From Escherichia phage vB_EcoP_phi315, in sequence record PV189403.1: a DNA stretch of 59,532 nucleotides. The stretch is one strand, 5' to 3'. Below the pieces are notes generated by a model that was given only the letters and a program-made list of their open reading frames with translations, was not told the origin of the DNA and made no database searches. Positions within the stretch are counted from its first letter, which is position 1, and every line of letters begins with the position of its first letter. Below, piece by piece: positions 10,500 through 11,451 of this stretch. A program made the position numbers and the translations under genes.

Positions 10500-11045
10500 A
10501 TGGGGGTTGCTTCCGGATGGGTTGGCTCCTCTGCCGTTAGTGTAACTGGTGAAAGGTCAATGAAATCGGCAGGTGCCAAACTTAAGCTAAGTACACCGTT
10601 TTATATGTCGCAAATGGTTGGGAAAAGTGTACAGGACTTTTCTATCACTGTAGGTCGTTCAAATTTTGTTGTTTTAGTTCAGGCAACAAATATACAAATT
10701 GTTCCTGTAAACAATAACTATGGAGGGTATTCTAATAACTCAACAACGACAGGTGCTGGCTCTGCCGTTTCCAGCCGTGTGCAAACACAAAATCCGGCTG
10801 GTTCAATAAATGGTTCGTTGTTAGGTTGTTCAATTACGCATCTTTCTCAAACGCAAGACTCTACCAAGATGTATCTGGGCTTAACGAACGGGCCTAATCA
10901 AAACTTTACTCTATCATTTGATGGAACCAATATCTCATTCACACCATCATCATTTGCAAACAATACTCGGCATTATAGTGCAATAGTTTCTAAAAACTGG
11001 CTCTTTAATCAAAACGGAAAAACTATATCTGTTTATAAGGTTTAG
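10500..11045 (+). CDS. hypothetical Ser/Thr/Asn-rich protein (possible distal fiber/adhesin moron)
   Basis: 181-aa ORF with near-perfect RBS (AGGAGGA + 7 nt + ATG); AT-rich, low-complexity N/S/T tract. Confidence 0.5.
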   Translation: MGVASGWVGSSAVSVTGERSMKSAGAKLKLSTPFYMSQMVGKSVQDFSITVGRSNFVVLVQATNIQIVPVNNNYGGYSNNSTTTGAGSAVSSRVQTQNPAGSINGSLLGCSITHLSQTQDSTKMYLGLTNGPNQNFTLSFDGTNISFTPSSFANNTRHYSAIVSKNWLFNQNGKTISVYKV

Positions 11046-11057
11046 AAGGAGTTGATA

Positions 11058-11285
11058 ATGTACAAATGTGTTTTAGCTGTATTGATATTATTATCTGGTT
11101 GCAAATCTTTGCCAACTCCGCTTTGCCATGGTAAAGCATATTTAGGTGGGGAAGAAACTATAATACCAATTTATGGGATTAAGAAAAGCGGGAAGTATAA
11201 ATTGTATCATGCAGGGCATCACTACAACTGGCGTTGGGTTGGTGCTGGAGCATTTGACAGCACAACCTGCTCTCAAATAATGTAA
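11058..11285 (+). CDS. small lipoprotein (possible Cor/Llp-like superinfection-exclusion protein)
   Basis: ATG at 11058 preceded by AAGGAG; signal peptide with lipobox LLSGC; ~60-aa mature product; AT-rich moron downstream of the tail fiber. Confidence 0.5.
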   Translation: MYKCVLAVLILLSGCKSLPTPLCHGKAYLGGEETIIPIYGIKKSGKYKLYHAGHHYNWRWVGAGAFDSTTCSQIM

Positions 11286-11425
11286 ACCGTATACTATGTA
11301 TAAAATGTTTAGCTAATGCTAATTGATAAATTGTCATGAAACAGGCAAATCTGAAATACGTAAAGAAGCGCTACACAGCAGGAGATTTTTGTGTGGCTGG
11401 GTGCAGTGGCTGCCGTAATGATGCA

Positions 11426-11451
11426 ATAAAAAGGGGAGCAACATGCTCCCC
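11426..11451 (-). terminator. minus-strand-oriented intrinsic terminator inside the late region
   Basis: GGGGAGC-aacat-GCTCCCC hairpin with an A-tract on the plus side (T-tract on the minus strand). Confidence 0.4.

Follow-up and report, generated by a model that had tools for sequence, protein, structure and literature searches.

A gp38-family adhesin and a Cor-family exclusion lipoprotein in a probable host-range cassette of Escherichia phage vB_EcoP_phi315

What is encoded in the AT-rich stretch immediately 3' of the side tail-fibre gene of Escherichia phage vB_EcoP_phi315, and whose receptor would the small lipoprotein encoded there close? We studied this locus (positions 10500-11451) within a stretch of 59,532 nucleotides (PV189403.1), hereafter the window, for which an initial annotation had proposed a two-gene moron consisting of an Asn/Ser/Thr-rich protein and a small lipoprotein. 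Judged by sequence, both genes are members of known families, and identical sequences are already annotated so in public records; because both open reading frames gave strong family matches and have homologues in like gene order in unrelated phages, we regard them as genuine genes, beyond chance. Taking the explanation as a whole, we consider it probable that the stretch from about 10050 to 11430 entered the late (tail) operon by horizontal exchange as a host-range cassette, and that its parts are the end of the fibre gene, a gp38-family adhesin gene and cor.

The smaller gene, cor (11058-11285, plus strand), follows a ribosome-binding site, AAGGAG (11046-11051), read from the sequence with a 6-nt spacer to the ATG at 11058, and its product is predicted to be a 75-amino-acid phage exclusion lipoprotein in which residues 1-14 form the signal peptide and Cys15 is lipidated. 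The lipoprotein of about 76 amino acids with an LLSGC lipobox in the initial annotation was thus confirmed, at 75 amino acids from the ATG or at 77 from an alternative TTG start at 11052. The product begins MYKCVLAVLILLSGCK and its lipobox is L12-S13-G14-C15 (Cys codon 11100-11102); the lipoprotein signal was read as MYKCVLAVLILLSG directly ahead of CK, with Lys and not Asp at position +2. In E. coli, a lipoprotein with no Asp at +2 is sorted to the outer membrane by the Lol pathway.

The Cor product scored 71.5 bits against the NCBIfam equivalog model NF047972 "phage exclusion lipoprotein Cor" (cut-off 31) and matched phrog_1119 (E=3e-33). By tblastn it was found in 221 phage records, including N15 gene 24 (43.4% identity), HK022 Cor (42.5%), many T1-like and Dhillonvirus phages, and JLBYU37, JLBYU60 and Envy, which are documented FhuA users; a word-index search gave few matches for either protein of the locus alone and required a profile of diverse Cor proteins. 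An alignment of 59 family members shows no variation at Cys15 of the lipobox, Cys23, Cys71 or Trp58, and an NW(R/Q)WV motif is common to the window protein, N15 and HK022. On the score against the curated model and the 43% identity to the tested Cor proteins of N15 and HK022, we place the 75-amino-acid protein in the Cor family and do not regard it as merely Cor-like, and the small beta fold predicted for it is that of T5 Llp; the likeness to Cor and Llp proposed at the outset therefore stands as family membership. Two reports state that Cor and Llp share a fold and that Cor functionally inactivates FhuA by a molecular mechanism not determined (bioRxiv 10.64898/2026.03.26.714494; PMC13164509), and one of the two models Cor on the periplasmic face of FhuA.

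The Cor proteins of N15, phi80, HK022, mEp167 and T1 (NF047972; phrog_1119) resemble the window Cor in length (about 75-78 amino acids), in the lipobox, in Cys23, Cys71 and Trp58, and in being encoded at the end of a tail-fibre gene cluster, at 43% identity. Unlike these characterised proteins, the window Cor falls in a diverged sub-clade common to SSU5-like elements, and its carrier is a podovirus that appears to use BamA without a need for FhuA; its gene comes right after that of a gp38-type adhesin, whereas cor of the N15/HK022 type comes after two "membrane protein" genes behind gpJ. T5 Llp (PDB 8A60, with FhuA) is likewise a small outer-membrane lipoprotein, presumed to close FhuA allosterically from the periplasm, but is only 14% identical to the window Cor and, unlike in the window phage, is paired with a tail-tip protein, pb5, that binds the essential receptor. 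A search of both proteins of the locus by sequence against PDB chains gave no meaningful match. A match to phrog_3198 "Rz-like spanin" (E=0.024) covers residues 1-24 of Cor, that is, the signal peptide only, and the matches to full-length Cor models are many orders stronger, which rules out a spanin; with the gene lying in the tail operon and not in a lysis cassette, and with the predicted Llp fold, we find an Rz1-like or any other non-exclusion lipoprotein scarcely credible.

The gene ahead of cor (10500-11045, plus strand), with a ribosome-binding site AGGAGG (10487-10492) read from the sequence 7 nt before the ATG at 10500, encodes a protein of 181 amino acids of which Asn, Ser and Thr make up 34.8% and Gly 9.9%, in agreement with the Asn/Ser/Thr-rich open reading frame and ideal ribosome-binding site first described. 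Its residues 1-40 matched Pfam PF21721 Gp38_N from end to end (profile positions 1-40 of 40; 70.6 bits, cut-off 25), and the full-length protein matched phrog_1121 "tail fiber adhesin" (E=6e-66). These 40 residues are its most conserved part among relatives, the remainder being variable. A HMMER search of 1.84 billion representative proteins (E<=0.001) matched 49 clusters only, most of them over the first ~50 residues and about five over the whole length; with so few full-length matches, the protein reads as a conserved docking domain joined to a rare C-terminal domain. In an AlphaFold2 model residues 1-43 are disordered and residues ~46-181, the presumed receptor-binding part, form a beta-sandwich (predicted local distance difference test score of about 90 over the last 80 residues); a disordered N-terminus would be expected of an attachment segment that orders only upon the fibre tip.

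The adhesin gene lies directly after the collagen-like side tail-fibre gene (8403-10424, plus strand), whose product starts with an N-terminus of prophage tail-fibre type, continues with ~330 residues of collagen repeats and ends with a Peptidase_S74 intramolecular chaperone (Pfam PF13884, fibre residues 578-633), the last encoded by the 3' end of the gene (10134-10424, plus strand) and coming after a motif that ends in SDKRNKRN. We compared the fibres that precede Gp38_N adhesins in SSU5 (SSU5_021), Shigella phage 75/02 (gp55), SSU5-like contigs L009-11, contigs L012-14 and L015, and Klebsiella phage KMI13. All fibres found upstream of a Gp38_N protein end in ...GNGSFNDV(Q/Y)IR followed by SD(K/R)R.K and the S74 domain, and the pairing of an S74 fibre with an adhesin recurs in SSU5, 75/02, L009, L012, L015 and KMI13. 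Fibres without an adhesin at the same locus end otherwise, that of 933W in Phage_fiber_C and that of phiSTEC1589 in a form followed by a Caudo_TAP/DUF4376 chaperone. A separately encoded gp38 tip adhesin on a gp37 fibre with a self-cleaved chaperone is the stated paradigm for T2, T6 and S16 (bioRxiv 10.64898/2026.05.12.724579). With the Gp38_N domain, the S74-ending fibre upstream and this paradigm, the 181-amino-acid protein is most likely a virion-borne side-fibre tip adhesin, and the receptor-binding accessory suggested by the initial annotation takes on, by homology, the more definite form of a gp38-family protein.

Some GenBank records call homologues of the adhesin "distal long tail fiber assembly catalyst", and the 181-amino-acid protein might then be a fibre assembly chaperone that is not kept in the virion, in the role of T4 gp38 or lambda Tfa. 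We consider this very unlikely, because the protein matches Gp38_N, the attachment domain of T2-type adhesins, and not Caudo_TAP as the true chaperone of the phiSTEC1589 locus does, and because the window fibre already bears its own intramolecular chaperone.

As a tip adhesin, the protein shares with gp38 of T2, T6 and Salmonella phage S16 the Gp38_N attachment domain and the position of its gene right after a fibre gene with a self-cleaving chaperone. Unlike these, it is shorter, lacks a glycine-rich domain with hypervariable segments and sits on the collagen-like side fibre of a podovirus, while gp38 of T2, T6 and S16 sits on a myovirus long tail fibre. In the mechanism that we propose, the S74 domain would aid folding of the fibre trimer and then cleave itself off ahead of the conserved Ser of SDKRNK, the N-terminal 40 residues of the adhesin would dock on the fibre tip thus laid bare, in the manner of gp38 on the gp37 of T2, T6 and S16, and the Asn/Ser/Thr-rich beta-sandwich would touch a host surface molecule, providing an accessory, non-essential adsorption. 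Cor would bind FhuA, or a TonB-dependent transporter related to it, on the periplasmic face and switch it to a state unusable by phages, as T5 Llp does; that the target of this Cor variant is FhuA or such a relative is our presumption.

The N4-gp56-type capsid, SU10-type adaptor, collagen-like fibre, J-like tip fibre and lom encoded nearby indicate that the tail region around the cassette is of the 933W-like type of short-tailed temperate lambdoid phages (Sepvirinae). In Stx2-converting phage 86, Shigella phage POCJ13, vB_EcoP_phi296, phi367 and phi419, and two LC-series Shiga toxin (Stx) phages, the stretch 10400-11520 recurs at 100% identity. In the GenBank record of phage 86 (2006) it bears the label "O86 specific region1 (not found in O157)", with "Cor like" as the name of the small gene; RefSeq has "tail fiber adhesin" and "Cor superinfection exclusion protein" for the two genes, and in E. 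coli chromosomes PGAP applies the name "phage exclusion lipoprotein Cor". The cassette is carried by 53 of 5,426 complete E. coli genomes. Since the genes were annotated before, nothing in it alters current understanding; three modest additions, which we did not find described in the literature searched, are that the adhesin has a C-terminal domain of non-glycine type, that fibre end, adhesin and cor are inherited together in three types of phage, and that Cor is carried by a phage without a need for FhuA.

The AT-rich character of the locus was verified (G+C of 0.396 over 10500-11451 vs 0.494 for the whole window), and the low-G+C tract sets in at about 10050, within the fibre gene. This gene is a mosaic of three parts, an N-terminus of ordinary G+C, the GC-rich collagen Gly-X-Y repeats (~330 residues at ~9000-9950, 66-70% G+C) and a C-terminus of 37-40% G+C. 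Of the moron proposal, the atypical composition (0.39 vs 0.49) and the absence from close relatives hold good; no conserved promoter and no plus-strand terminator of its own were found for the unit, cor starts 12 bp after the adhesin gene, and an independent transcription unit could not be demonstrated. By homology the adhesin is moreover a structural component of the tail fibre, an outcome that the initial annotation itself had named as refuting. In 933W, 75/02 and STEC1589 the locus is occupied by other modules and is not an empty site, which argues for a swap rather than an insertion between otherwise adjacent genes, so that a swapped host-range cassette that includes the 3' end of the fibre gene is the better description. 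At their side-fibre locus, Shiga-toxin-type phages have several host-range modules in alternation, of which the cassette would be one; it may affect the strains to which such phages adsorb and hence where stx genes spread.

How firmly the three parts belong together can be gauged from other lineages. The start of cor lies 12 bp past the adhesin stop in the window and in the related FORC_043 prophage, 10 bp past it in L012-14 (225-kb metagenome scaffolds) and 9 bp past it in L022/23 (Salmonella Enteritidis contigs), and cor is tightly coupled to the late tail operon. The order in SSU5 and SSU5-like phage-plasmids is fibre, adhesin, an 84-amino-acid gene, a ~190-amino-acid gene and cor, and that in N15-like prophages is gpJ, a 100-amino-acid gene, a 224-amino-acid gene and cor. 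Identity to the window for fibre end, adhesin and Cor is 100, 99 and 99% in FORC_043, 69, 68 and 57% in L012, 60, 57 and 55% in L009, and 52, 50 and 47% in SSU5; in L022 the adhesin is 83% and Cor 60% identical (fibre end not available). The rank order of divergence is the same for all three parts, by which fibre end, adhesin and cor appear to have been linked for a long time. Such linkage would suit functional coupling as well as a simple co-transfer with later deletion of the two intervening genes.

The SSU5 and SSU5-like loci resemble the window in having a full-length adhesin homologue (SSU5_022, 44.5% identity by tblastn; 57% for the SSU5-like relatives), an S74-ending fibre and a Cor homologue nearby (47-55% identical); unlike the window phage, SSU5 is a siphovirus phage-plasmid with two genes between adhesin and cor. 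L015 and L016, of a Sepvirinae lineage with a 76% identical adhesin, have no cor gene but only a relic of it: positions 5553-5632 of L015 (also L016) hold a frameshifted, truncated cor, ...LLSGCQTLPEPVC, joined to backbone sequence, and the L015 spacer reads ...FLLSGCQTLPEPVC in a frame other than that of its ATG before the backbone begins. The relic marks cor as recently lost from a related prophage in which the adhesin was retained.

Some of the SSU5-like relatives bear a second, T2-type gp38 after cor. Second Gp38_N adhesins beyond cor were seen in L009-L011 and L019-L020 (~6990-7820, 4530-5350), in L012 (5800-6306) and in L022 (1-278), and in SSU5-like phage-plasmids and the two other contig types some of them have the glycine-rich GP38 domain of canonical type. 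This arrangement suggests one fibre with alternative tip adhesins and cor embedded between them.

Whose receptor, then, would Cor close? The cor cassette has been reported to track FhuA use in T1, N15, HK022, ES18, phi80 and BASEL phages, and Cor/Llp-like proteins occur also in BtuB-dependent phages (PMC13164509). For the window phage, phi296, phi367 and phi419 served as stand-ins, their cassette being identical to that of the window. According to PMC12502783, seven podophages including these three lysed all 54 Keio outer-membrane mutants, a panel that included fhuA766, btuB, ompC, ompA, ompF, lamB and fadL, and pre-incubation with purified BamA lowered podophage infectivity by 2-3 logs in most experiments. 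The phage thus appears to enter via BamA without needing FhuA, and Cor probably does not block the phage's own essential receptor, contrary to the role first assigned to the lipoprotein. Lysis of fhuA766 and loss of infectivity with BamA argue that Cor excludes competitors instead; on the most economical reading, it probably serves mainly to guard the infected or lysogenic cell from FhuA-dependent phages such as T1, T5, phi80, N15 and the HK022 type. If Cor does work in this way, lysogens would be resistant to FhuA-dependent phages, which would be relevant to phage-based control of Shiga toxin-producing E. coli, and a working Cor may also impair ferrichrome uptake.

Several observations weigh against the account given so far of adhesin and Cor. 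The adhesin gave no match to Pfam GP38 (PF05268, glycine-rich), so its receptor-binding half is not that of a canonical T2/S16-type gp38; glycine-rich motifs and hypervariable segments of a polyglycine sandwich were not found in it, and structural comparison found no solved relative of its C-terminal beta-sandwich. The main text and one supplement of PMC12502783 make no mention of the adhesin in virions. The carrier does without FhuA, as the literature on phi296, phi367 and phi419 indicates, unlike every characterised phage that bears cor, and the window cor does not directly follow two membrane-protein genes downstream of gpJ, the extended arrangement that goes with FhuA use in T1, N15, HK022, ES18, phi80 and BASEL phages. 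The window Cor is only 43% identical to the Cor proteins tested experimentally, and with Cor/Llp-like proteins present in BtuB-dependent phages its target could differ. The relic in a lineage that keeps the adhesin indicates that cor is dispensable. With no conserved cor promoter found, expression of cor in the lysogen is a presumption.

Which surface molecule the adhesin touches bears on what Cor is for. Of the candidates, we tentatively put forward the lipopolysaccharide (LPS) core, hold FhuA or another transporter to be unlikely, and leave the remainder of our expectation to another surface molecule. It is possible, if on balance doubtful, that the adhesin binds the core oligosaccharide and that Cor is an unrelated passenger from an SSU5-like donor, retained as a defence gene only. 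SSU5 is the closest characterised phage with this type of adhesin (44.5% identity); it infects rough Salmonella only and is said to attach to the oligosaccharide of the LPS core "with the tail fiber gp22" (PMC12312913, which cites Kim et al. 2014; also PMC4138488). That statement rests on a secondary citation, its "gp22" may be either SSU5_022 or the long fibre SSU5_021, and the C-terminal domain of the window adhesin is only 47% identical to its SSU5 counterpart. The C-terminal beta-sandwich, rich in Asn, Ser and Thr, has none of the porin-binding loops seen in T2-type gp38, which speaks for this reading, as does the indifference of the sister phages to any single outer-membrane protein knockout in the panel of PMC12502783; however, dependence on the LPS core may also stem from its effects on outer-membrane protein assembly.

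The opposite view is that adhesin and Cor are a cognate pair, the adhesin binding FhuA or another TonB-dependent transporter from outside as an accessory receptor and Cor closing the same protein from the periplasm, which would keep the phage's own fibres from adsorbing again and progeny from being lost on cell debris, as pb5 and Llp do in T5. We find this unlikely, though it has several points in its favour: the 9-12 bp between adhesin stop and cor start in three contexts, the frameshifted 5' cor relic left beside the adhesin in the lineage without cor, the single rank order of divergence, and the fact that in T5, Rtp and T1-like phages a receptor-binding protein is as a rule paired with an exclusion protein. 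However, SSU5-like elements have two genes between adhesin and cor, and their unit of two genes and cor resembles the N15 cassette after gpJ, so that the adjacency of adhesin and cor in the window may be the product of a deletion. The SSU5 fibre moreover reportedly binds the LPS core and not a protein, again by the secondary citation above, and the loss of cor in L015 shows that the adhesin works without it. Normal plating of the sister phages on the fhuA deletion strain weakens the idea of a cognate pair further, although it is weak evidence because an accessory receptor would not be visible in a spot assay. Slightly less likely still, in our estimate, is the stronger form of the idea, in which adhesin and Cor travel as a portable "key plus lock-jammer", the one binding a TonB-dependent transporter such as FhuA outside and the other, co-inherited, shutting it from the periplasm. 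If true, a gp38-type adhesin would here for the first time have a TonB-dependent transporter as its target, and a receptor-binding/exclusion pair would for the first time serve an accessory, not an essential, receptor.

The Cor proteins of N15 and HK022 are expressed in the lysogen, and when the window Cor would be made we can only presume. Promoter-like sites between 10000 and 11800 numbered 4, against 4.8 expected from shuffled sequence, and were thus not in excess. A search of the last part of the adhesin gene (its 3' end) found no conserved promoter for cor, the one candidate (10938-10967) not being kept in L015, L022 or L012, and no plus-strand terminator was found after cor in 10000-11800. 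A near-consensus sigma-70-like site (TTGACA-16-AATAAT, 11/12 matches; 11254-11281, plus strand) lies within the last codons of cor and points right, into a 320-bp spacer that holds only the doubtful gene orf24. This 48-amino-acid open reading frame (11336-11482, plus strand), annotated in phage 86, lies in the spacer between cassette and backbone and is probably not a gene: it has no Shine-Dalgarno sequence and no family match, is not called by PGAP in FORC_043, and its 3' half aligns with non-coding 933W DNA.

A terminator-like hairpin followed by a T-run, reported by the initial annotation as oriented to the minus strand, is indeed present at 11451-11433 (minus strand; GGGGAGCA-TGT-TGCTCCCC then TTTTTATT). 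Its stem has 8 pairs, 6 of them G-C, and it is the strongest of the four terminator-like sites in 10000-11800 (shuffled sequences gave 1.3 +/- 1.0). The hairpin and the sequence to its right are common to 933W, with one substitution in the loop; both are identical in FORC_043 and not present in 75/02, STEC1589 or L015. Being shared in this way with 933W, it is backbone sequence at the junction and lies outside the cassette, of which it had been taken to be a part. Rfam gave no match for the hairpin or the spacer (10300-11800, E<=1), and no obvious minus-strand gene or promoter was found right of the hairpin. The minus-strand-oriented hairpin sits inside an all-plus-strand late operon.

The window also contains the other two gene types with which cor is associated elsewhere. 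Two genes after the J-like tail-tip gene, of 92 and 205 amino acids (14513-14791 and 14797-15414, plus strand), are distant homologues of the pre-cor "membrane protein" genes of SSU5 and N15: in BLASTP, identity was 26% to SSU5_024 (E=8e-9), 22% to SSU5_023 (E=2e-7) and 21% to N15 gp23 (E=1e-3). The extended cor cassette has been defined as an "outer membrane protein", a "membrane-associated protein" and cor (PMC13164509, after Wietzorrek et al. 2006). All three gene types are thus in the window too, with cor at 11058-11285, but unlike in the extended cassette they are non-contiguous and in another order, and identity of the two membrane-protein genes to their SSU5 and N15 counterparts is only 21-26%. 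The pair is part of the conserved backbone, 3.2 kb downstream of cor and followed by lom, and its products could be tip-associated receptor-binding proteins.

Downstream of lom, a 46-amino-acid open reading frame (16473-16613, plus strand) stands where PGAP puts a Hok/Gef family toxin in the FORC_043 prophage. At gathering level, Rfam matched four regions of the window, 52373-52931, 48429-48624, 39208-39266 (minus strand) and 33435-33524 (minus strand); listed in this order, the matches are three tRNAs followed by the small RNA (sRNA) STnc100, isrK and C4 antisense RNA with a1/b1 targets, the lambda cIII thermoregulator, and sRNA-Xcc1.

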